DNA from: an uncultured Hormoscilla sp.
GTDB lineage: Bacteria; Cyanobacteriota; Cyanobacteriia; Cyanobacteriales; Desertifilaceae
NCBI GenBank assembly: GCA_963921275.4
Contig: OZ001293.3
Span: 5,152,001 to 5,216,000, forward strand
Length of the DNA stretch: 64,000 nt
Direction of reading: 5' to 3'
Made by a program: the position numbers and the translations under genes. The notes beneath the pieces are model-generated. The model made no database searches and had not been told where the DNA came from. It worked only from the letters and a program-made list of their open reading frames with translations. Of this stretch, positions 20,167 through 60,486 are shown piece after piece (positions within the stretch are counted from its first letter, which is position 1; every line of letters begins with the position of its first letter).

Positions 20167-21584
20167 ATGGTTAGGCGCGTGAGGAAAACTCATAGTGAAT
20201 CTTGGAAGAATTTGCCCTGGAAGAAATTCCGGCGCAATCTTTTTCGCCTGCAATGTCGAGTGTGGAAAGCTATTAGAGCGGGAGACAAGGCCCGAGGGAA
20301 GATCCTGCAAAAGCTAATTCTGAAGTCCCGGAGTGCAAGATACATAGCCATCCGTCAGGTAACGCAGCTCAACGCCGGGAAGAAAACGGCGGGGGTAGAT
20401 GGCAAAACATGCCTCACTTTCCCAGAAAGACAAGAGCTAGAGAAACTGCTAAAAGAACAAGCCAAAACTTGGTCACATAGCCGTTTACGGTCCCTCCCAA
20501 TTCCCAAAAAGGACGGGACGACCCAAATGCTCAAAATCCCAACGATTAAAGATAGGGCATGGCAATGTCTTGTCAAATATGTCATCGAACCTGCCCATGA
20601 AGCACTTTTCTACGCTAGAAGCTACGGGTTCAGACCCGGACGCTCAACGCACGACTGCCAGAAAAACCTATATCTATGTCTGAGGTCATTCGCCCACGGA
20701 CTGGATAAAAGAGTTCTGGAATTGGATATCGAGAAGTGTTTTGATCGTATAGACCATAACTTCCTGATGAAACACACTATAGCCCCTCAATGCGTGAAGC
20801 TAGGGCTATGGAAATGTCTCAAGGCAGGAGTTAATCCGGAGTTCCCCTCGCAGGGAACTCCACAGGGAGGCGTGGTAAGTCCGGTACTGGCGAACATTGT
20901 CTTAGATGGCATCGAAAACATCCACCTCAAGCCAGAAGATGATGCTGATGTTATCCGGCAACAGGTCAAGGAATTCTTAGCGCTAAGAGGGTTGAATATA
21001 AAAGCACTTCATACGAGGCTCGTGGCCGCGACAGATGGGTTTTATTTTCTCGGCTGGCATTTCAAAGTGCAACAGAACTGGAAGTTCAGATGCGTCCCTT
21101 CAGAGGACAATTATGAGGCTTTCCGCCAAAAGGTCAAGCACATTGTCAACAACTCTAATTATGGTGATCTCACCAAAGCGCAAAAGCTATCTCGCCTAGT
21201 AAGAGGATGGAGGAACTACCACCGCTACTGTAAGTTAAGTGGCGCCAGGTTCTCACTGTACTTCATTGCACACAGGGCGCAGATGCCTTAATCAAAAAGG
21301 CATTCCCAAGCGTACCCTATCACGAACACAAGCACGTCAAGGTCATAGGTGATAAATCGCCTTTCGACGGGGACATAACTTACTGGTGTCAAAGAAACTC
21401 CAAATATTACGAAGGTCTCACGGCAACAGCGCTAAAGAGACAGGACTATACATGTGGACACTGCGGAATGAAACTACTAGATGGAGAGAAGGTACAGCTC
21501 CATCACATCGATGGAAACCACGACAATTGGAAGCTGACAAACTTGATGGCAGTACATAAGTCGTGTCATGATTATATCCACATG
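20167..21584 (+). pseudogene. ltrA: Group II intron RT/maturase/HNH lacking the YADD segment, frameshifted near 21280
   Basis: NAGKKTAGVDG, SYGFRPGRS, GTPQGGVVSP, then GIENIHLKPEDD with no YADD; HNH (CGHCG...HHIDGNHDNW) in another frame. Confidence 0.85.
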
Positions 21585-23391
21585 GTGCGATTCGTTCAGG
21601 CGTAAACTGGCGACGGTGAAGTCTGGTCTGGTTTCATTTGCCGGATAACTCTGGTTATCATGGGGGTTAAATTCCCTCTCCCCAGGTGTGGGGGGTCGAG
21701 GGTACTACCGGTCCTTAGTGCTGCGGGGTCACATCGCCGTGGTGCTCCGCTAGGACTTAAATGTAGGATAGCTGGCAGCCTAACCCAGTGACGCCGCTAG
21801 GAAAGATGCTCATGGTTAGAACAAGCGAACCTGTTAAAGCCTCGTTACATAGAACCAGCGGAATAAGGCTTATACGCTGGCCCAAAAGGGAAAATGGTAG
21901 TTAGTGTTGGTAGTCATCTATTGCCAGCATCGCACCCAAAGAACTCCCGGGGTATAGCAGGGGCCTACAAGCATCGAGAAATGATACCAGGGAACGAAGT
22001 AACCTCACGTGAGCTGTCCCCATTTGGACCAGTTAGATGTAAAGCGCAAGCCGCGAAGAGGAAGGATGTTCTAAGAAGCCAACGCCTGGGGTAATGCCTG
22101 GGATATGCAGACGTAGGACGGATATGGTAAGAAGCCTTTGGTGAAAGTAGCCCTAACACGTCGCAAAACTTAGGAGAAATCCAAAAGTATGAATATGGAC
22201 TAGGGCGTGTCATCAATTAAGCCATATTACAGCTGCCGCGAGGTAGATGGCACCCAAGAAATTGCGAGCCGTTTTATCGTAGCGTGTCGCCAGAGCCCTG
22301 TATTGCTTGAGTTTTTGGAATAGATTTTCAATTAGATGCCGCCACTTGTACATTTCTTCATCGTATTCTCTGTGTTCTGTGCGGTTACTTTTTGGAGGAA
22401 TGACAGCCATCCAATCCGCCTCTTTCAGGCGCTCGAGCACACGTTGTTCCGCATCATAGGCTTTATCTGCAAGCAGCGCGCCAATCTCACCGATTTTATC
22501 CAATAGCACGTCAGCGCCTTTCCCGTCGTGGGCTTGGCCAGGGGTAAGATGAAATCCTGTGGGATTGCCTTGGGCAATCGCAAGTGGCATGAATCTTTGT
22601 CGATAGTCCCCCTTTACTACGGCCTATGGCTTGGGTTTCGCACGTATCTGAGGGTGTTTTTTTTTGCACCCGCACGCTCGTTGATGGGCACGCAGGATGG
22701 TGGCATCAATCGCGGCGTATTCGTTATCGGCGTCTGAGGCCAAGACATCGAATACCTGCTTCCAAACTCCCTTTTCAGACCAACGGGATGGCGGGTATGA
22801 ACAACCCGAAAATCCCCAAAACACTCCGGTAAATCCCGCCAGGGAATGCCAGCACGATATCGATATAACACGGCAGAACACGAATAATCTATTGTTCTTG
22901 GCTGTAGCGCCTGGGTCACCCTCTTTACCAGGTAAAAGGTGTTCGATCCGTTCCCACTGGTCGTCTCGCAAGCCATAGCGTCTCATATCATGCCCTCTTG
23001 ATTGTTATTGCTGGATAAGGACTCCATACCGTATCCATCTACTTCTGTCAAGCAATTTGATTGATGACACACCCTAGAGTCTCAGCCGGGTAAAGTTCAG
23101 AGCCCCGATAAATTGCCAGAATGGGGAAATGTTAGAGAAGAGCGGCTAGAATGGTTTGCTGAACTACCCTCCGCGATCGCGCAGCGTGCGCGCAGCGCAT
23201 ACCTTCCGGAGCTGAAATCATTAACGGTCCAATAGGATTGACCATAAGGGGTAAAATTACAGAGGGTAAGGGGAAACGGGGTGACCTAATTATTGATGAT
23301 GATATGCCTAAGGACAAGCCCCAGCGGTGAAAGTCGCAAGTCCGGTTCCGCTCTTGGAGGGTTGGGGAGTGATTCCCAGCTCGACCCCGAC
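21585..23391 (+). mobile_element. ORF-less group II intron 'E' inserted at the end of the intron D ORF; itself carries an IS5
   Basis: GTGCGATTCGTTCAGG start; degenerate DV; ends CTCGACCCCGAC at 23391. Confidence 0.85.
22203..23074 (-). mobile_element. IS5-family element (two-ORF type), frameshifted
   Basis: TIRs GGGCGTGTCATCAA / TTGATGACACACCC in a CTAG target; LRDDQWERIEHLLP, LLADKAYD, KQYRALATRYDK. Confidence 0.9.
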
Positions 23392-23494
23392 CAGCAAGTC
23401 AATTGACTAGGTTATCGGGAGCCGGATGCGGGGAAACTCGCACGTCCGAATCTAAGAGGGAGGTGCGGGGTATAACAGCCCCATCGACCCTACC

Positions 23495-27491: not shown

Positions 27492-28204
27492 GAGGTTAAT
27501 GGATAGGACAGGGCAGGGGCGGTTCTACTTCCCTCACCGCAAGCAGATATCGATAGACTGGTAGTGTGTCAAGATTTAATTGATAGGTAAAGACTCTTGA
27601 GCTTTATCCGAGCATCAGTTGTCGTAAATGGCCAGGATATCTGTAACTGCTCACAGCAATAAATAAAGCTTATTGAGAATGGATAACTGGCGATGCTCAT
27701 TGCTATAAACATCCACTGTGTAAAATCGCTCCTTACCATTGCCATATAAGAATTTCAGCTCTCAGGACTACTGTACAACTTCCCCTCGGCTGACAGAGAT
27801 AGGCTTTCCTTGGGATTAAACTAAGCCAACGGGTCACCCCGCCGACTCGTCTTCAGAACCGGACGTGAGACTTTCACCTCATCCGGCTCCTCAGTTTCGC
27901 CATCCTTGTCATGGATACGGCCTTTGTCACCATCTCTGGCAGACTTTACATCATGGCAATAATCATGCAGCAACTGTAGGTTGGTATACCAGTCTTTACC
28001 TCCTTTAGAAACTGGTAGAATATGGTCAACCTCCCATTTGTCGCCATCTTTGAATTTCAGTCCGCAGTGCACACACTTACCATCCTGCTCTTTTAGCAGT
28101 CTGATAACTCTAGCGCTCACATCCGGGCTTTTTCTCAGTCTTTTGCTCCAATAAACCAGATTACCGTCAAACGGGCTAGCTGTCCCCTTAACCTTTACGT
28201 GTCT

Positions 28205-29946
28205 GTGCGATTCGTTCTAGCCTAACGTGGTCAAACACGGAACGCTAGCCCGGTTTCATTAGCCAGGAACTCTGACCGCATGGGGGTTAAATTCCCCTCC
28301 CCCCAGGTACGGGGGTGACACCGGTCCTCGGTGCTACGAAGCGACATCATCGTGGTGCTAAGCGAGGACTCAAATGTAGGATAACTGGCAGCCTAAGCCG
28401 GTGACGCCGCTAGGAAAGATATCCAAGGTTAGAGCAGGCAAACATGTGCAAGCCTCGTTATAAGGAACCAGCGAAATAAGGCTATATGCGCTGGCCTAAA
28501 AAGGAAATGGTAGCTAGTATTAGTTTTAGACTCTGGCTAATATAGTACTCAAATAGCTCCCGGGGTATAGTGTGGACCTAAAGGTATCGCGAAATGTTGT
28601 TAGGGAACGAAGTAACCTCTCGTGTGCTGTCCATCAGGACAAGTTAGATGTTAAGCGCAAGCCACGGGGGGAGGGATGGCCCAAGAAGCGAATGCCCGGG
28701 GTAATTCCTGGGATAACATCTACAGTAATGTAGATGATGCTGGGTAGCCAGCGCTGACGTGGGTCGGTGATACTAGGAAGCTGCTGGAATGAGTAATCCT
28801 AAAAAGCCACGGAACTAATCCGAAACGCAAGTGGAGGATAAGGTATGGATAACTGGTAAAACTGACTTGAAAATGGTGATACTAACGGTTATCAGAACAA
28901 CCACTCGCTAAACCAGGAAAGGGAAGAAAAGACAGGCGGCAAGGGCTAACGGAAGTAATTCCTATTAAGTCTGTGCGATTCGTTCTAGCCTAACGTGGTC
29001 AAACACGGAACGCTAGCCCGGTTTCATTAGCCGGGAACTCTGACCGCATGGGGGTTAAATTCCCCTCCCCCCAGGTACGGGGGTGACACCGGTCCTCGGT
29101 GCTACGAAGCGACATCATCGTGGTGCTAAGCGAGGACTCAAATGTAGGATAACTGGCAGCCTAAGCCGGTGACGCCGCTAGGAAAGATATCCAAGGTTAG
29201 AGCAGGCAAACATGTGCAAGCCTCGTTATAAGGAACCAGCGAAATAAGGCTATATGCGCTGGCCTAAAAAGGAAATGGTAGCTAGTATTAGTTTTAGACT
29301 CTGGCTAATATAGTACTCAAATAGCTCCCGGGGTATAGTGTGGACCTAAAGGTATCGCGAAATGTTGTTAGGGAACGAAGTAACCTCTCGTGTGCTGTCC
29401 ATCAGGACAAGTTAGATGTTAAGCGCAAGCCACGGGGGGAGGGATGGCCCAAGAAGCGAATGCCCGGGGTAATTCCTGGGATAACATCTACAGTAATGTA
29501 GATGATGCTGGGTAGCCAGCGCTGACGTGGGTCGGTGATACTAGGAAGCTGCTGGAATGAGTAATCCTAAAAAGCCACGGAACTAATCCGAAACGCAAGT
29601 GGAGGATAAGGTATGGATAACTGGTAAAACTGACTTGAAAATGGTGATACTAACGGTTATCAGAACAACCACTCGCTAAACCAGGAAAGGGAAGAAAAGA
29701 CAGGCGGCAAGGGCTAACGGAAGTAATTCCTATTAAGTCTACCTATGAAAAGGGCCTAGTACCCAGTAGCCGGATGCGGTGAAAATCGCAAGTCCGGTTC
29801 CTCAAGGGAGGGTCGGGAAGCGATTCCCGGCTCGACCCCATCCACCTATGAAAAGGGCCTAGTACCCAGTAGCCGGATGCGGTGAAAATCGCAAGTCCGG
29901 TTCCTCAAGGGAGGGTCGGGAAGCGATTCCCGGCTCGACCCCATCC
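28205..29946 (+). mobile_element. ORF-less intron 'G' outer copy (28205-28972 plus 29844-29946)
   Basis: GTGCG start; DV/DVI at ~29870-29946. Confidence 0.9.
28973..29843 (+). mobile_element. ORF-less intron 'G' inner copy
   Basis: Complete near-identical copy lying after AAGTCT in domain IV of the outer copy. Confidence 0.88.
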
Positions 29947-31359
29947 GATTATTTCAGTTTCAGAGTATCGGTTTAGCTTCATTCCTCCATCTTCTTTAGA
30001 CTTGCCAGCGAACCTCCACCGGTCTTTCCCGGTCATACCCCAGTACTTACTAGCAATCCATTTGCCCGTTTTGTTAGGATGTCTTCTCTTTGCCCATCGC
30101 CATAACAACTTCCATAAGTAGTTATCCATAGAGCTGTAAGTTTCTTTACTTACCACCGTCCTATAATAGTTGCTCCATCCCCTTATCATCGGGTTTAGTC
30201 TTGCTATTAAGGCCGTTTGCGGTGCCCCTTTATGGCGGCGAACTATCTCTGATAGCTGCTCTTTATGATTCCTTATGGATTTATCGCTAGGCTTGATTAG
30301 GGTCTTGAATCCTAGGGGGGTTCCGTTACAGAGTTTGCCGCTTCTGTGTTTCCCTACTTTATATTGTCGGATATTGAACCCTAAGAAGTCAAATCCAGGG
30401 CTCTCTCCTTCCAATGTGTGGGATATCTTCGTTTTCTCGGCTTTTTGCTCCAGCCCTATTCCCTTCAACCACTCCTCAATCACTCCTTGAGCTTCCTCAA
30501 TCATCGACCGGTCATTATGTATTACCACAAAGTCATCCGCATATCTTACTACGGTTAACTTCTCCTTCTCTCTTTTTGTGTGAGCGAGACCCATTACTAC
30601 CCCTTCCAGCCCATGTAAAGCTATATTGGCTAGTAATGGAGATATAACCCCACCTTGGGGAGTTCCGGCTTCTGTGGATTCCATCCTTCCCCGGTCCATC
30701 ACCCCAGCTTTTAGCCATGCTCGTATTTGTTTACGGATTGGTGACGTAGTATTCAATTTCTTTAGGAGCGCGGAATGGTCAATTTCGTCGAAACACTTCG
30801 CAATATCCGCATCTAACACCCATTTCGATTTTTGACTGATGCTAGCGAATATCGCTGCAACTGCATCATGACATCCCCTACCTGGTCTAAACCCGTAGGA
30901 ATTGGCTTCCATATACGCTTCCCATTCAGGCTCTAGCGCTTCTTTAACCAATCCCTGAAGTGCGCGGTCGTGCATCGTTGGTATTCCTAATGGCCGCTTC
31001 TCCTCCCTTCGTGGCTTCGGTATCCACACTCTTCGTGTGGCTTTTGCCTTCGCCTTTCGAGTAACTTTAATTTGACCTACCAGTTCGATACGTTCTTTTG
31101 GGGTCAGTGCTTTCACACCATCCACACCAGCCGTCTTCTTTCCCTGGTTTTGTTGTGTTACCTGCCGTACCGCTATCATCTTCGCGGACCATGACCTATT
31201 TAGTAATCCTTGGAGCTTACGAACCTTCTGCTTATTACCTTCCAGTGCCGCTCTGTAAATTCGCTTTTGCAGCTTAAAAACTATCCTTTCCAGCTTTCGC
31301 CAGGCGACAGTCTTCCATTCATACTCTTGTCTTTCGACTAAGTTCCGTGACATATTCAC
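29905..31359 (-). CDS. ltrA: Group II intron RT/maturase (RT plus thumb, intact YADD); C-terminal HNH part detached at 27821-28204
   Basis: NQGKKTAGVDG, RPLGIPT, PQGGVISP, RYADD, PMIRGWSNY; frame YSETEII|RHVKVKG is restored when 28205-29946 is removed. Confidence 0.9.
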   Translation of the reverse strand: MNMSRNLVERQEYEWKTVAWRKLERIVFKLQKRIYRAALEGNKQKVRKLQGLLNRSWSAKMIAVRQVTQQNQGKKTAGVDGVKALTPKERIELVGQIKVTRKAKAKATRRVWIPKPRREEKRPLGIPTMHDRALQGLVKEALEPEWEAYMEANSYGFRPGRGCHDAVAAIFASISQKSKWVLDADIAKCFDEIDHSALLKKLNTTSPIRKQIRAWLKAGVMDRGRMESTEAGTPQGGVISPLLANIALHGLEGVVMGLAHTKREKEKLTVVRYADDFVVIHNDRSMIEEAQGVIEEWLKGIGLEQKAEKTKISHTLEGESPGFDFLGFNIRQYKVGKHRSGKLCNGTPLGFKTLIKPSDKSIRNHKEQLSEIVRRHKGAPQTALIARLNPMIRGWSNYYRTVVSKETYSSMDNYLWKLLWRWAKRRHPNKTGKWIASKYWGMTGKDRWRFAGKSKEDGGMKLNRYSETEIIGWGRAGNRFPTLP

Positions 31360-32425
31360 TACTACTTACAACTTCACAATTGACGAGACCGTGAGGGCGT
31401 CAGCTTATCCTATCCATTACAGACAGGCATTTGCTTCTCCACTCAATCTCCCCCAGTTGCGTCCTGCCTTCCGGAGAGCAGATGTTACGCCTGTGGTGGC
31501 TACTCCATCTATCGACCGGTGATGGAGAGTGCTACAACCGGGTTACTTCGTTCCTACAGATGATTGGTCGTAACCTTAGACGGGTTCTCTACGCCGGGTT
31601 TATTGTCAGTGCTTATTGGTCGGGTATACATCCGCCAATGACCAGTATCCTTTCCCTTTTTGGGCCAGTGTATCAGCCTTATTACACTGGATAGGCTTTA
31701 CGACGTTGCAAACCTTCGCTTTACGCTCATCATAGTTACTTGCTCGACGATGACCGGTCTAGGCTCCCAGCCATAGCGCCTTTCCTTCCCGCTTCACGGA
31801 TTGATGCCATCGCTACCGTGGGGAGGGTGCTGTCACTCCTGCACCTGGAGGGGCGGGCTTTCACCACCATCACCTGTAAGTTCTCGGGACTTACGAAATC
31901 CCGGTAGCGGTCCCCCTCCTTGACTTGTGTCAAGTTAGTTTACGCTAAACGAATCGCACGTATACTAGCTTATATGACCTTTACTGCTGCACTACAGACC
32001 TCACAGATGACCTCCGCCATCCCTGCTGACGAGATGGCGAACTATCTGCTGGTGATGGAGTGGATGGTCAAGCAGCAGCAACTGCTCAAACAACAGCAGG
32101 CTAGAATTGAGAAGCAACAGAAAGAACTAGAGGCTCTCGGAAAATTTACAACTCTCCTCCGAGCTGAAGAAACTGAAAAACCGGTCGTCTCAAAACAGTT
32201 CTGTCCCCCCCTCACAAGACCTTCTCAAAAAACCTTCAGCCCCTAGCAAGGGTAAAAAAGGTAAAAAAGGCGGTCCTAAAGATAATCACTTTGGTAAGAC
32301 AGGCTCCGGGATTTGGAGAACCCGATCGCACAGAACAGCTATTGCCTGTAGCTTGTCCCACTTGTGGAGCCCAGGTAGAGCCGGCGACAGGTGCTCCCAA
32401 GAAAGTTCAACAAATCGCAGAACTG

Positions 32426-40378: not shown

Positions 40379-41077
40379 TTATACCATCATCCGCTCCAGA
40401 GCATGAAGATCTGGGATGCAAAGGATATCCCGATCGCGCACTATCAGATTTTTCTTCTCCAGCTTACTCAACACCCTGGTCACCGTTTCCCGTGCCAGTC
40501 CACTCAGACTACTCAGTTCCCGGTGAGGTAAATTAGGAATTTCCACTCCTTCGGTAGTGCGTTTGCCCTGTCCATCGGCCAGAAACAGCAGAATATCTGC
40601 CACCCGCGAGGTACTATCCGACTCCCGCAACCGCAGACGCCGGTTTACCTGACGCAAACGTTGTGCCATCAACTGAGCTAATCTAATTCCCGCCTTCGGT
40701 TCCGTATTAATCAGATGGACAAAATCCGAGGCTGGCATATTACCTATCCTAGTCGGAACCAGGGTGATCACATCTGTCGAGCGAGGCACCTCCTCCAGAG
40801 GGGCCATTTCACCAAACAACTCTCCTTTGCCGATGATATTCAGCGTCACCTCCTTGCCATCCAGATTGTAGGTGCGAATTTTCACCCAACCATCTAGAAT
40901 GAAGTACACCGAACTTCCCCAGTCATTTTCCAGCAAAATCACCTGATTAGATGGATGGGTGCGCACCACAACCTGAGCTGTCGCCCGCTCGATCGAACTT
41001 TCGGGTAATCCTTCAAACAACGGTGCCGAGCGAATTTCTTCTGCACTTGATTCGCGGGTGTTCAGTCTGTCTACCAT
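40379..41077 (-). CDS. Crp/Fnr-family transcriptional regulator
   Basis: cNMP domain (FGEMA...PRSTDV) and HTH (SGLARETVTRVL). Confidence 0.92.
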   Translation of the reverse strand: MVDRLNTRESSAEEIRSAPLFEGLPESSIERATAQVVVRTHPSNQVILLENDWGSSVYFILDGWVKIRTYNLDGKEVTLNIIGKGELFGEMAPLEEVPRSTDVITLVPTRIGNMPASDFVHLINTEPKAGIRLAQLMAQRLRQVNRRLRLRESDSTSRVADILLFLADGQGKRTTEGVEIPNLPHRELSSLSGLARETVTRVLSKLEKKNLIVRDRDILCIPDLHALERMMV

Positions 41078-41397
41078 AGGGCATTATGCCAATGTGAACG
41101 CTGGAGGTATAATTATAGCGGCCCGGTTGGAGCTTTTTAAACTTGCCGGTGACTATTTGGACCTTTCCATCGGTGCAAGCAGGATTTATATCAACTATCA
41201 TTCCACCTCCTAGATAATATAATACATTTCCAGGTCGCGCAAGTATCTCTCCTAATCTTTTACCCTTTGCAAATTGTTAAAATGCTAGATATTGGTAATT
41301 TATAGGTGCGATTCCTTCTGGCGTAACTGGGCACCACGTTCAGGATAGTCAGGTGGGGTAAAACCCACAACTCAGGCGTTATGAGGGTTAGATTCCC

Positions 41398-43331
41398 GTG
41401 CGATGAGTTCCAGCCTAACGTAGTCATATACGGAACGCTGGCCTAGGAAACTAGGAACTCTGGTAATCATGGGGGTTTAATGGTCGGGGTTTAATGGTCG
41501 GGGTCGAGCTGGGAATCACTCCCCAACCCTCCAAGAGCGAAACCTGAAGAGCGACTGGAACCGCACACGGCTACTGGTTGGTAAGCTGTTGTCATCAGTA
41601 GGATTACTGGGGGTTACCCCCGTTGTCCCTTACCCTTTGAAATTTTACCCCTTATGGTCAATCCTATTGGACCGTTTAAGTACTGAGCTGCGGAAGGTTC
41701 GCGGAGGATAGTTCAGCAAACCATACTCGCCGCTCTTTACTAACATCTTCCCCATTCTGCTTTCCGCTTTTCGTAAGGGCTCTGAACTTTACCTGGCTAA
41801 GATTTGAATCCAAAATTCGTACTTTCGGAATTTCTCCCTAGTTCTGTGACATTAAGGTTACTTTTCCCAAGGGTGTCTTACCATATCCGTCCTACGTCTG
41901 CATATCCACAGGCATTACCCTGGGCGTTAGCTTCTTAGGACATCCTTCTTCTTCGTGGCTTGCGCTTTACATCTAACTTGTCCAAATGGGGACAGCTCAC
42001 GAGAGGTTACTTCGTTCCCTAGTATCATTTCACGATGCTTTTAGGTTCCTACTATACCCCGGGAGTTCTTTGAGTACGTTATTAGCCAGAGGCAAGAGCT
42101 AATACTAACTACCATTTCCCTTTTTGGGCAAGCGCATAAGCCTTCTTCCGCTGGTTCTGGTTAACGAGGTTTACATAGGTTCGCTTGTTCTAACCATTAG
42201 CATCTTTCCTAGCGGCGTCACCGGCTTAGGCTGCCAGTTATCCTACATTTAAGTCCTCGGGAGGCACCACGGCGATGTGGCTCCGTAGCACCTCCGACCG
42301 GTAGTACCCTCGACCCCCGTACCTGGGGAAAGGGAATTTAACCCCCATGATAACCAGAGTTATCTGGCTGATAGAGCCAGACCCGACTTTCACCTACTGG
42401 CTTATGCCGGAACGAATCGCACTCCCCCTCCCCAGGTACAGGGGTAACCGCGTGAGGTGCTGCGAAGTAACATCATCGTGGTGCCAAGCGAGGACTCAAA
42501 TGTAGGATAACTGGCAGCCCAAGCCGGTGACTCTGCTAGGAAAGATGTCCATGGCTAGAACAAGCGAACCTATGTAAACCTCGTTAAACCCAACCAGCGA
42601 AATAAGGCTTAATGCGCTGGAACAAAAGTTAATGCAGTTAGTGTTAATTAGGGAATTGGCTAACATTGTACCCAAATAACTGCCGGGGAAAAGTAGGGGC
42701 CTAAAGGCATCGTGAAATGATACCAGGGAACGAAGTAACCTCAGCGAGAGGAACGAAGTAACCCCCGTGGTGCTGTCCTCATTTGGACAAGTCAGATGTG
42801 CGTCCGCGTAGCGTGCGCGCAGCGCATAGCGCATGCCCATGAGGGGAGAGATGGCCCGAGAAGCTAATGCCTAGGCGGTGTCTGGAGCATGCCTTGGTGT
42901 CTGGAGCACACCGAGTCCTTCAGGACAAGAGTGTGCGGAAGACGCCAAAGTCCTTCAGGACAAGAGCATGCGGAAGACGCCGGTAATGCCTATGGATACG
43001 CAGACGCGGGTCGGTGATACTAGTAAACTATTGGTACAAGTAGCTCTAAAATGTCATAAGCCCATTTACAGCGTTAGCGAAAGCGAGTTGAGGATTGAGG
43101 AATGTTTAACTGGTAAAACGGAGTGTTAAATGGTGATACTAAAGGTTATCCGGCAGCTCCACTCACCAACCAGGAAAGGGGCGGACGTGCAAGTAGTAAG
43201 GGACAATGGGAGTAATCCCTAGTAATCCTACCCGTGAAAGGGGCCTAGTACCCAGTAGCCGTGTGCGGTGAAAGTCGCATGCACGGTTCCGAAAGGGAGG
43301 GTTGTCCCGCGAGGGACAGCTCGACCCCGAC
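41398..43331 (+). mobile_element. ORF-less intron 'K' (middle)
   Basis: GTGCGATGAG start; DV AGCCGTGTGCGGTGAAAGTCGCATGCACGGTT; ends CTCGACCCCGAC. Confidence 0.88.
41497..42422 (-). mobile_element. ORF-less intron 'L' (inner, antisense)
   Basis: Minus-strand GTGCGATTCGTTCCGGC at 42422; DV degenerate; ends CTCGACCCCGAC at 41497. Confidence 0.88.
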
Positions 43332-43974
43332 TCATGTACAGGGGTGACACTGGCCCACCGTTCCGGAAAAATCGGTGCTGTGGAGCAACATCATCACGGT
43401 GCTGAGCGAGGGCAAATGTAGGATAGCTTCCAGCCCTGAGGAGGCAACGCCGCTAGGAAAGATGTTCACGGTTAGAACAGGCAAACCCATGTAAGGGTCG
43501 TCATGTCAAATCGGTGAAATAAGGCTGAAACACCGGGCACAAAAGTGCATGCAGTTAGGACTAATGCTCTATAATCATTAGTTTTGTACACAAACAACTG
43601 CCAGCCTATAATGGGAACCTAAAGGCATCGTGAAATGACGTTTGGGAACGAAGTAACCCCTGTGGTTCTGTCTCTAGGGACCAGCCAGATGTGAAGCGCA
43701 TGACCACAGTCTTAAGGATGGCCTAAGAAGCAAATGCCTGGGATAATGCCTAGGATATGCAGACGTAGGTCGGTGATAGTAGGAAGTCTTGGGTGAAAGT
43801 AGTCCTAAAAATGCTATGAACCGGTAGGTGACTGCCAGGTATGTATGAAGACGTAAGTCTTGAAGGGACCAAATCTCATGAGGCAAGGGACAACGGGAGT
43901 AATCCCGAAGTTACCTACTTATGACAAGGGCCTACTACCCAGTAGCCGTATGCGAGGAAAGTCGCTCTTTAGGT

Positions 43975-44666
43975 TCCGAATGGGAGGGTTCCGAAGCGAT
44001 TCCCAGCTCGACCCCTAAAATATTTATTTCAGAAACTATAGTAACTCGGTATTTGATGAGTGGCACTCGCACCAAAAAGTTGCTGGCATCAGGGGTTAGG
44101 GAATAAACTGGAAAATAATACCAGGCGCACGAGGAGTAGCGAAGTGGCGCAAAACGAAGGGCTACGTCATAAACAAGATGCGCTCGCGCACTACTAATAA
44201 TTGCGCATTTTTGCTTGCTATAAAGCAGCGTTATCAGCTAAAATAGAAAAAGCAGACCGATGGCTAGCCCTGGCTGCTAACTTAAGCAAGCCGTTCATGA
44301 GTTGTGTAACTGGATTTTTATCCGAATGGGAGGGTTCCGAAGCGATTCCCAGCTCGACCCCTAACATATTTATTTCAGAAACTATAGTAACTCGGTATTT
44401 GATGAGTGGCACTCGCACCAAAAAGTTGCTGGCATCAGGGGTTAGGGAATAAACTGGAAAATAATACCAGGCGCACGAGGAGTAGCGAAGTGGCGCAAAA
44501 CGAAGGGCTACGTCATAAACAAGATGCGCTCGCGCACTACTAATAATTGCGCATTTTTGCTTGCTATAAAGCAGCGTTATCAGCTAAAATAGAAAAAGCA
44601 GACCGATGGCTAGCCCTGGCTGCTAACTTAAGCAAGCCGTTCATGAGTTGTGCAACTGGATTTTTA
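43975..44666 (+). repeat. 346-bp tandem duplication spanning intron J DVI and the 3' flank
   Basis: 43975-44320 repeated at 44321-44666; the ORF track shows the same 346 offset. Confidence 0.9.
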
Positions 44667-44823
44667 GCTGAAAGCCTTACCCTGCAATTGTTTCAGCCAT
44701 TATTTTCACTCCAGAAAATTTGCACAAATGTATAGGACGCACTATATACGCGCTCGCGGCGTTACGCCAAGAGCTTTGCTGGCTGTGGCCTGAGCGCATC
44801 GAAAGATGTGCTCTGTTATACTA

Positions 44824-59473: not shown

Positions 59474-60129
59474 ATTAAACTAAGCCAACGGGTCACCCCG
59501 CCGACTCGTCTTCAGAACCGGACGTGAGACTTTCACCTCATCCGGCTCCTCAGTTTCGCCATCCTTGTCATGGATACGGCCTTTGTCACCATCTCTGGCA
59601 GACTTTACATCATGGCAATAATCATGCAGCAACTGTAGGTTGGTATACCAGTCTTTACCTCCTTTAGAAACTGGTAGAATATGGTCAACCTCCCATTTGT
59701 CGCCATCTTTGAATTTCAGTCCGCAGTGCACACACTTACCATCCTGCTCTTTTAGCAGTCTGATAACTCTAGCGCTCACATCCGGGCTTTTTCTCAGTCT
59801 TTTGCTCCAATAAACCAGATTACCGTCAAACGGGCTAGCTGTCCCCTTAACCTTTACGTGTCTGTGCGATTCGTTCTAGCCTAACGTGGTCAAACACGGA
59901 ACGCTAGCCCGGTTTCATTAGCCGGGAACTCTGACCGCATGGGGGTTAAATTCCCCTCCCCCCAGGTACGGGGGTGACACCGGTCCTCGGTGCTACGAAG
60001 CGACATCATCGTGGTGCTAAGCGAGGACTCAAATGTAGGATAACTGGCAGCCTAAGCCGGTGACGCCGCTAGGAAAGATATCCAAGGTTAGAGCAGGCAA
60101 ACATGTGCAAGCCTCGTTATAAGGAACCA
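59474..60129 (-). mobile_element. Second copy of the intron F 3' end with the same antisense intron G 5' end, truncated
   Basis: Matches 27815-28470 at an offset of 31659; identical 99-aa HNH ORF. Confidence 0.9.
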
Positions 60130-60486
60130 CAGGATTTCATCTTACCCCTGGCCAAGCCCACGACGGGAAAGGCGCTGACGTGCTATTGGATAAAATCGGT
60201 GAGATTGGCGCGCTGCTTGCAGATAAAGCCTATGATGCGGAACAACGTGTGCTCGAGCGCCTGAAAGAGGCGGATTGGATGGCTGTCATTCCTCCAAAAA
60301 GTAACCGCACAGAACACAGAGAATACGATGAAGAAATGTACAAGTGGCGGCATCTAATTGAAAATCTATTCCAAAAACTCAAGCAATACAGGGCTCTGGC
60401 GACACGCTACGATAAAACCGCTCGCAATTTCTTGGGTGCCATCTACCTCGCGGCAGCTGTAATATGGCTTAATTGATGACACGCCC
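60130..60486 (+). mobile_element. IS5-family 3' half
   Basis: Same protein as 22213-22590; TIR TTGATGACACGCCC. Confidence 0.9.

Follow-up and report, generated by a model that had tools for sequence, protein, structure and literature searches.

A nest of three ORF-less group II introns in a Hormoscilla genome, with the middle intron at a domain I hairpin of the outer one

Several cases are known where a group II intron has entered another one, and four of them come closest to the locus considered here (all four sources are cited from extracts). In Thermosynechococcus elongatus, F3 introns (TeI3) without an open reading frame (ORF-less) home into domain IV (DIV) of F1 introns (TeI4) (Mohr, Ghanem and Lambowitz, 2010, PMC2882425). 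Methanosarcina acetivorans holds nests up to five introns deep that contain no coding exons (Zimmerly and Semper, 2015, PMC4424553), described as built up when introns homed repeatedly and site-specifically into other group II introns, which act as a perpetual homing site (PMC4424553; cited in PMC2882425). The Tr.e.I7/I8 twintron of Trichodesmium erythraeum consists of a IIB host, with the 5' end GUGCGAUUC, and an inner intron in domain I of that host (Pfreundt and Hess, 2015, PMC4649490). Plant mitochondria contain fossil "zombie" twintrons as well as a self-invading intron (Zumkeller, Gerke and Knoop, 2020, PMC7049729). Here we describe a nest of three ORF-less group II introns, J, K and L, in a 64,000-nt stretch of contig OZ001293.3 from an uncultured Hormoscilla sp. 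(the window; all coordinates are window positions). The nest is probably the fossil stack left by three successive retroelement insertions at an intergenic "safe" site. By intron similarity the source lineage is close to Hormoscilla metagenome-assembled genomes (MAGs), and a literature search combining Hormoscilla with "group II intron" found no paper.

An nhmmer profile built from five family copies gives the order J, K, L (minus strand), K, J across 41306-44018. The outer intron, J, opens with GTGCGAT, the 5' start common to all three introns, and its 5' segment (41306-41397, plus strand; model 1-91) covers domain I up to the 3' arm of a hairpin. The middle intron, K, is inserted directly after GGGTTAGATTCCC (41385-41397) of J. 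Its 5' segment (41398-41481, plus strand; model 1-87) runs from GTGCGATGAG to GGGGGTTTAAT (41471-41481) and is followed by a junction filler (41482-41496), which the sequence and Tandem Repeats Finder (TRF) resolve into an ambiguous G41482 and an extra copy of a 14-nt unit. The innermost intron, L, is full length at 926 nt and lies antisense to J and K (41497-42422, minus strand; model 1-836, 795 bits). K resumes with TCCCC (42423-42427), so that L is inserted between this sequence and GGGGGTTTAAT; the K 3' segment (42423-43331, plus strand; model 86-836, match 42421-43331) carries exon-binding sites 2 and 1 (EBS2, EBS1) and domains V and VI (D5/D6). The J 3' segment (43332-44018, plus strand; model 97-835, match 43332-44017) carries EBS1 and a degenerate D5/D6 and has the 3' end TAA. 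K and L both end in CTCGACCCCGAC, and J ends in CTCGACCCCTAA (...CCCCTAA).

The joins of the nest all lie at exact full-length intron termini, with the host sequence continuing in register. When the two halves of J are joined across K, an A-T pair, A41384/T43332, is restored, as read from the sequence. J, K and L are pairwise only ~70-77% identical and therefore represent three lineages, not copies of one. Four ORFs of at least 60 aa occur in 41306-44018. Pfam recognises none of them, and a protein search with the longest found no homologue; the three introns are ORF-less, with no reverse transcriptase (RT)/maturase ORF in DIV. The triple nest put forward in the original prediction, with K entering J right after GGGTTAGATTCCC, antisense L within K and all three introns ORF-less, is thus confirmed by the profile order and the exact termini.

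What would have directed K to this position? The EBS1 and EBS2 loops were placed by the alignment columns that in sibling introns pair with the introns' own flanks; in one such case, an intron present at two different sites has the same intron-binding site 2 (IBS2), TAGAT, at both. K has EBS1 GGGAAT (42651-42656), in the columns of the sibling EBS1 loop, and EBS2 AACCC (42587-42591). The J sequence that K would have used consists of IBS2 GGGTT (41385-41389) and IBS1 ATTCCC (41392-41397), and EBS1 and EBS2 pair with it at 6/6 and 5/5 positions respectively, Watson-Crick throughout. GGGAAT is thus the exact complement of the family motif, as had been proposed. Among 1,524 candidate sites in J the true site ranks first, scoring 11 against 9 for the next best. 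When both window strands are scored, 11/11 is reached at only 10 of 127,966 sites, and every one of them is the domain I hairpin of a family intron; the site in J is the only one occupied, the other nine being empty. Scored over 15 introns, cognate EBS pairings reach 8-11 and non-cognate ones 6-10, a cross-matrix that discriminates poorly with G.U allowed and is taken only as support. The perfect pairing, the top rank and the confinement of perfect sites to introns point to ordinary retrohoming of K to a cognate site. Judged by these predicted guides, the cognate homing site of K within the window is clearly an intron sequence, the family hairpin.

This hairpin, GGGGG-TTARATT-CCCYY, lies ~78-94 nt into the intron and has a 5-bp stem and a 7-nt loop. 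In the full-length consensus fold it comes first among the hairpins of the domain I multi-helix junction; of the 201 pairs that this fold predicts, 83 have a compensatory change in one or more sequences. A closing helix that RNAalifold proposed from the first ~190 nt is unsupported by the full-length fold, which was used instead. All five standard stem pairs are formed in 19 of 19 family and related introns, a set that includes two RT-encoding relatives from the window and copies from Hormoscilla MAGs; both sides of the stem have changed in three sequences (T-A, A-T, T-A) and one side in another. The complete pairing together with the both-side changes indicates that the hairpin is a real RNA element. 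Conservation of the motif in domain I, also part of the original prediction, is seen in nine other window copies with GGGGGTT..ATTCCC and at six of the nine family 5' ends, from six Hormoscilla loci, among the matches listed. K cuts the hairpin of J between the third and fourth base of the 3' arm.

The guide pairing of L is weaker. L has EBS1 TGCCTC (42094-42089) and EBS2 CCAG; against the bottom-strand flank, CTGG..GGGGGA, they pair at 9 of 11 positions (EBS2 4/5, EBS1 5/6), one of them a wobble. The score is equalled or beaten at 8 of 1,952 sites in K, which places the site within the best 8. Several figures weigh against guidance: the pairing is weak (8.5/11, with a G.G mismatch at -2), 550 of 127,966 window sites match or beat it and 53 reach at least 9.5, and the cognate score of 9 lies inside the non-cognate range. 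Given this weak pairing, guided entry of L is only suggested, and we read the event as an ectopic retrotransposition that may have been weakly guided. The nearness of L to the K site is suggestive, as a single event. L had been placed in the equivalent hairpin of K; the hairpin is correct, but the position is not equivalent, since L cuts the loop rather than the 3' arm, on the opposite strand and 4 nt 5' of the homologous K site. Likewise, convergence of both insertions on one hairpin holds for K but is overstated for L, given the other strand, the incomplete pairing and the number of window sites that are as good.

The nest is also decayed, J and L more so than K. K retains D5/D6 at 43254-43331 (RF00029, 47.9 bits, cut-off 40), and its canonical D5+D6 fold has -37.6 kcal/mol and z = -3.72, against z = -4.08 for an intact sibling. 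With GTGCGAT at 41398 (GUGYG), an RF00029 match above the gathering score and EBS/IBS pairing, K has the features of a IIB-like group II intron, but its six domains are not uninterrupted, domain I being interrupted in the hairpin loop by 941 nt (L plus filler). An internal duplication of 23 nt in K (42727-42763) repeats the conserved GGAACGAAGTAACC block of the D1/D2 border, and a 35-nt tandem repeat of 1.9 copies lies at 42914-42981; both are signs of damage accumulating in K as well. J and L align to the family profile over their full length but lack an intact catalytic domain V. An RF00029 search of 41200-44700 on either strand at E<=1 finds only the D5/D6 of K and none for J or L. Their D5/D6 folds are no better than shuffles (z = +0.51 for J, -0.06 for L); the D5 3' arm is changed in both, and in L the GAAA loop is lost as well.

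Two duplications add to this picture. At the L 3' junction a tandem array (41472-41504; period 14, 2.4 copies, 100% match, TRF) is built of a unit that joins K loop sequence to the last 3 nt of L and so spans exon and intron bases; it is best explained by replication slippage between GGGG runs. At the outer end of the nest lies a 346-bp tandem duplication (43975-44666, plus strand; TRF, 2.0 copies, 99%; by BLAST 43975-44100 = 44321-44446; by nhmmer 44321-44363 = model 793-835). Its unit takes in 44 nt from the 3' end of J and a further 302 nt of the flank beyond; immediately after J, one copy reads A and the other C. The duplication postdates the insertion of J.

K lies in J in sense, as a functional twintron would require, but L lies in K antisense and J has no recognisable D5/D6. 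Being antisense, L cannot leave a J/K transcript by splicing. The ruined D5 of J and L, together with the splitting of K domain I by antisense L, therefore marks the nest as a fossil and not a working twintron. Sequential splicing of the nest, a point raised in the original prediction, appears implausible today.

The boundaries, orientations, pairings and decay are read directly from the DNA; from them we infer an order of events, a trans-acting protein and a mode of entry for L. J, K and L would derive from one ORF-less TeI4-like (IIB/chloroplast-like) family, with RT supplied in trans. J would have reverse-spliced into intergenic DNA at TTGGTA..TTATAG, a site matching its own EBS2/EBS1; J EBS1 CTATAA (43569-43574) pairs 6/6 with the 5' flank TTATAG (41300-41305). 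K would then have retrohomed, in sense, into the J hairpin through EBS2/EBS1, giving a classical twintron. Subsequently, L may have entered the bottom strand in the loop of the K hairpin, ectopically and with partial pairing, and so disabled K. Decay would have followed, with the 14-nt slippage duplication, D5 pairing lost from both J and L, 5 nt lost from J beside the junction and the 346-bp duplication over the J 3' end. The order of events leans on the argument that a K disrupted by L should be immobile. The candidate for the trans-acting protein is encoded by an RT/X ORF at 29905-31359 (minus strand; Pfam RVT_N, RVT_1, GIIM). The best solved relative of the intron protein is 6me0_C (1.5e-95), which we take to be the T. 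elongatus TeI4h protein.

Some observations do not sit easily with this history. The L 3' junction is not clean, given the 14-nt duplication and one base, G41482, of uncertain ownership, and J lacks five model positions (92-96) just after the exit of K. No uninterrupted relative of J or K was found, and exact excision is thus not demonstrable. K might also tolerate an insertion that lies in a terminal loop, which weakens the immobility argument. The only full RT/X/endonuclease (En) protein gene of this type seen in the window is interrupted by a further intron. Finally, the whole argument is drawn from the sequence of a single locus.

Does K belong to a lineage specialised as a parasite of sibling introns? 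Such a lineage would have many copies across the genome in ATTCCC hairpins, in the manner of the Thermosynechococcus F3 introns. The guides of K fit this idea, being perfectly complementary to a motif whose perfect sites (10 of 10 in the window) occur only in introns. The targets are plentiful in the window copies and in the Hormoscilla 5' ends among the matches listed, and the hairpin of K itself (GGGTTTA-ATTCCC if G41482 does not belong to K) would pair one base more with the EBS2 region than that of J. Repeated near-identical insertions in different hosts, by contrast, were not found: only 1 of 10 perfect sites in the window is occupied and 9 of 10 within the 64 kb are vacant. There is no second K copy in the window, where the best matches to the first 84 nt of K are only 78-80% identical and no other K-like 5' end occurs. 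When GTDB species genomes were scanned for GGGAAT at the spacing of EBS1, combined with a block conserved in the family, there were 0 matches, in a collection that does not hold the source genome and hence not the window's own K, and the spurious 114-aa ORF of K, used as a proxy for K-like DNA in a protein search, gave 0 hits. At least six loci with family introns, all from Hormoscilla MAGs among the matches listed, show neither a K-like copy nor an ATTCCC/GTGCG junction, a sample too small for a nesting frequency. The closest intron copies elsewhere among the matches listed are also from Hormoscilla MAGs and up to 91% identical. Against the K 3' segment, PLSDB plasmids yield seven records, none covering at least 80% of the query; six match only at a short D5 stretch and a Nostoc record at query bases 64-205. 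The specialisation of K therefore stands as far as its cognate site is intronic, but not as a proliferating lineage, and we regard the latter as possible though doubtful. A bolder version, that K is an "intron of introns" whose sole natural site is a family-wide essential hairpin, present in K too, that also serves as a two-strand hotspot, with L as its second, independent use and nesting as lineage competition, strikes us as rather unlikely. Were it true, every sibling and every new copy of K would be a fresh target and nests would be potentially recursive; hits in the ribozyme core, and not in DIV, would kill the host intron unless the guest spliced first, so that lineages of introns would compete and not stack harmlessly.

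The remaining alternatives concern how the layers came together. The nesting could have formed elsewhere, with the nested element then retrohoming here as a unit. Twintron mobility was proposed as one possible route by Mohr et al. (2010, PMC2882425, in the extract cited), and the terminal loop that L occupies might tolerate a large insert; but the window contains no second J::K or K::L copy, a conserved domain I hairpin is lengthened by the 926 nt of antisense L, and neither J nor L has a recognisable D5, which makes joint movement improbable. It is far less probable still that the nest is a working, sequentially spliced twintron influencing the neighbouring crp gene. That gene, an uninterrupted Crp/Fnr-family regulator (40379-41077, minus strand; Pfam cNMP_binding 1.4e-20, HTH_Crp_2 6.5e-16), is divergent from J; the nest lies upstream of it, and the distance predicted as about 230 bp measures 228 nt. 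The proximity and the intact D5/D6 of K favour an influence, but the nest is intergenic and divergent from crp, antisense L is unspliceable from the J/K transcript, and J has an unfolded D5/D6 without an Rfam match and the end TAA. Could the arrangement instead reflect misassembly, or homologous recombination or inversion between dispersed copies? The window is packed with 70-90% similar copies that are hard for assemblers, and elsewhere truncated copies do occur head to head (locus L001, below). Joins of that kind fall inside homology, however, whereas here they lie at exact termini (GTGCG.../...CCCCGAC) with the host resuming at the same position, and the limited identity between J, K and L also speaks against exchange; we give this explanation hardly any weight. 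Three successive insertions followed by decay thus remain our preferred account of the nest.

The window provides further instances of the same kind. Its family of short (~780-990 nt) group II introns is represented by 9 RF00029 D5/D6 matches (Rfam) and, by the nhmmer profile, by 22 whole or partial copies. A second nest (27815-31959) consists of an RT/X/HNH-encoding minus-strand intron (D1 31959-31387; RT/X ORF 31359-29946; in-frame HNH tail 28204-27821; D5/D6 27815-27891, 57.6 bits) that is split by an antisense, plus-strand ORF-less intron (28205-28972 and 29843-29945). The latter in turn contains, just 5' of its D5, a near-identical copy in sense (28973-29842, plus strand). Both plus-strand D5/D6 pass Rfam at 44.4 bits each, so that, from its sequence, the inner pair may be a self-invaded twintron that is still alive. 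In the window, introns have thus routinely entered other introns, in either orientation. These other nests use other sites, near D4/D5 and in the ORF of an intron-encoded protein (IEP), from which it follows that the family hairpin is the target of K and not a general sink.

Other rearrangements were noted in the same set of elements. A segmental duplication at 59474-60134 repeats 27801-28470, with the 3' part of the RT intron and the first ~270 nt of the antisense intron; it is 100% identical over 391 nt, and the 25-nt 5' flank is identical at 59864 and 28205. The family intron closest to L (21585-23391; 84% over 613 nt) is split at model ~596 by an insertion sequence whose DDE transposase ORFs lie on the minus strand (22213-22590 and 22617-22976), and a separate D5/D6 match lies at 23417-23493. 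An RT-encoding derivative at 656-2371 (ORF 742-2352, 536 aa) is ~72% identical to the 31959-27815 intron and has lost most of domain I (model region ~172-851 deleted). Between two ORF-less introns, a truncated RT/maturase ORF of 374 aa (20167-21291; RVT_N, partial RVT_1, partial GIIM) resembles none of the window's other RT introns at the nucleotide level, and a ribozyme of its own was not located. In a Hormoscilla MAG (locus L001, 1748-2409) two truncated family introns abut head to head, model 1-507 on the plus strand against model 1-175 on the minus strand; this join looks like recombination or deletion and not like a clean insertion.

The locus reveals no new mechanism, and the nest itself looks dead. 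It offers a clear example, at the level of sequence, of guides tuned to the ribozyme core of another intron, where known cases target DIV or an ORF, and nesting in both orientations bears on the expansion of non-coding DNA and of intron families in bacteria. Among the four systems, the T. elongatus F3/F1 pair resembles it in that the introns are cyanobacterial, ORF-less and mobilised in trans (as we assume here), enter a conserved intron site through EBS/IBS guidance and are mostly intergenic. In T. elongatus, however, the DIV site is flanked by the first and the second ATG of the IEP ORF, whereas K entered a domain I ribozyme hairpin of an ORF-less host; there, five or more identical inner copies attest to recent repeated homing, whereas here one copy stands beside nine empty sites. 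The extract cited on T. elongatus describes no antisense third layer, which is present here. Multi-level nesting by intron-into-intron homing is shared with M. acetivorans, an archaeon for which the extract cited likewise mentions no antisense layer. The nesting targets in that organism are reportedly intron ORF sequences, to judge from the title of the primary paper.

The Trichodesmium twintron, as described in its extract, also has a cyanobacterial IIB host with a guest intron in domain I, but both of its introns carry IEP ORFs, sit in a conserved protein gene and are spliced sequentially, whereas the nest here is ORF-less, intergenic and dead. By the published coordinates, the guest there sits 154 nt from the start of its host, beside theta, and K enters at nt 92; we make no claim that the two sites are the same. 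The plant mitochondrial zombies, from the account cited, share the fossil inner introns, in one case in domain I of the host, and the self-invasion described there resembles the 28973-29842 copy in the window; their outer introns are organellar, lie in genes and still splice, whereas outer J is dead and intergenic. The locus thus works like the known intron-in-intron cases and differs from them in its target, a hairpin of the ribozyme core, and in its antisense third layer.

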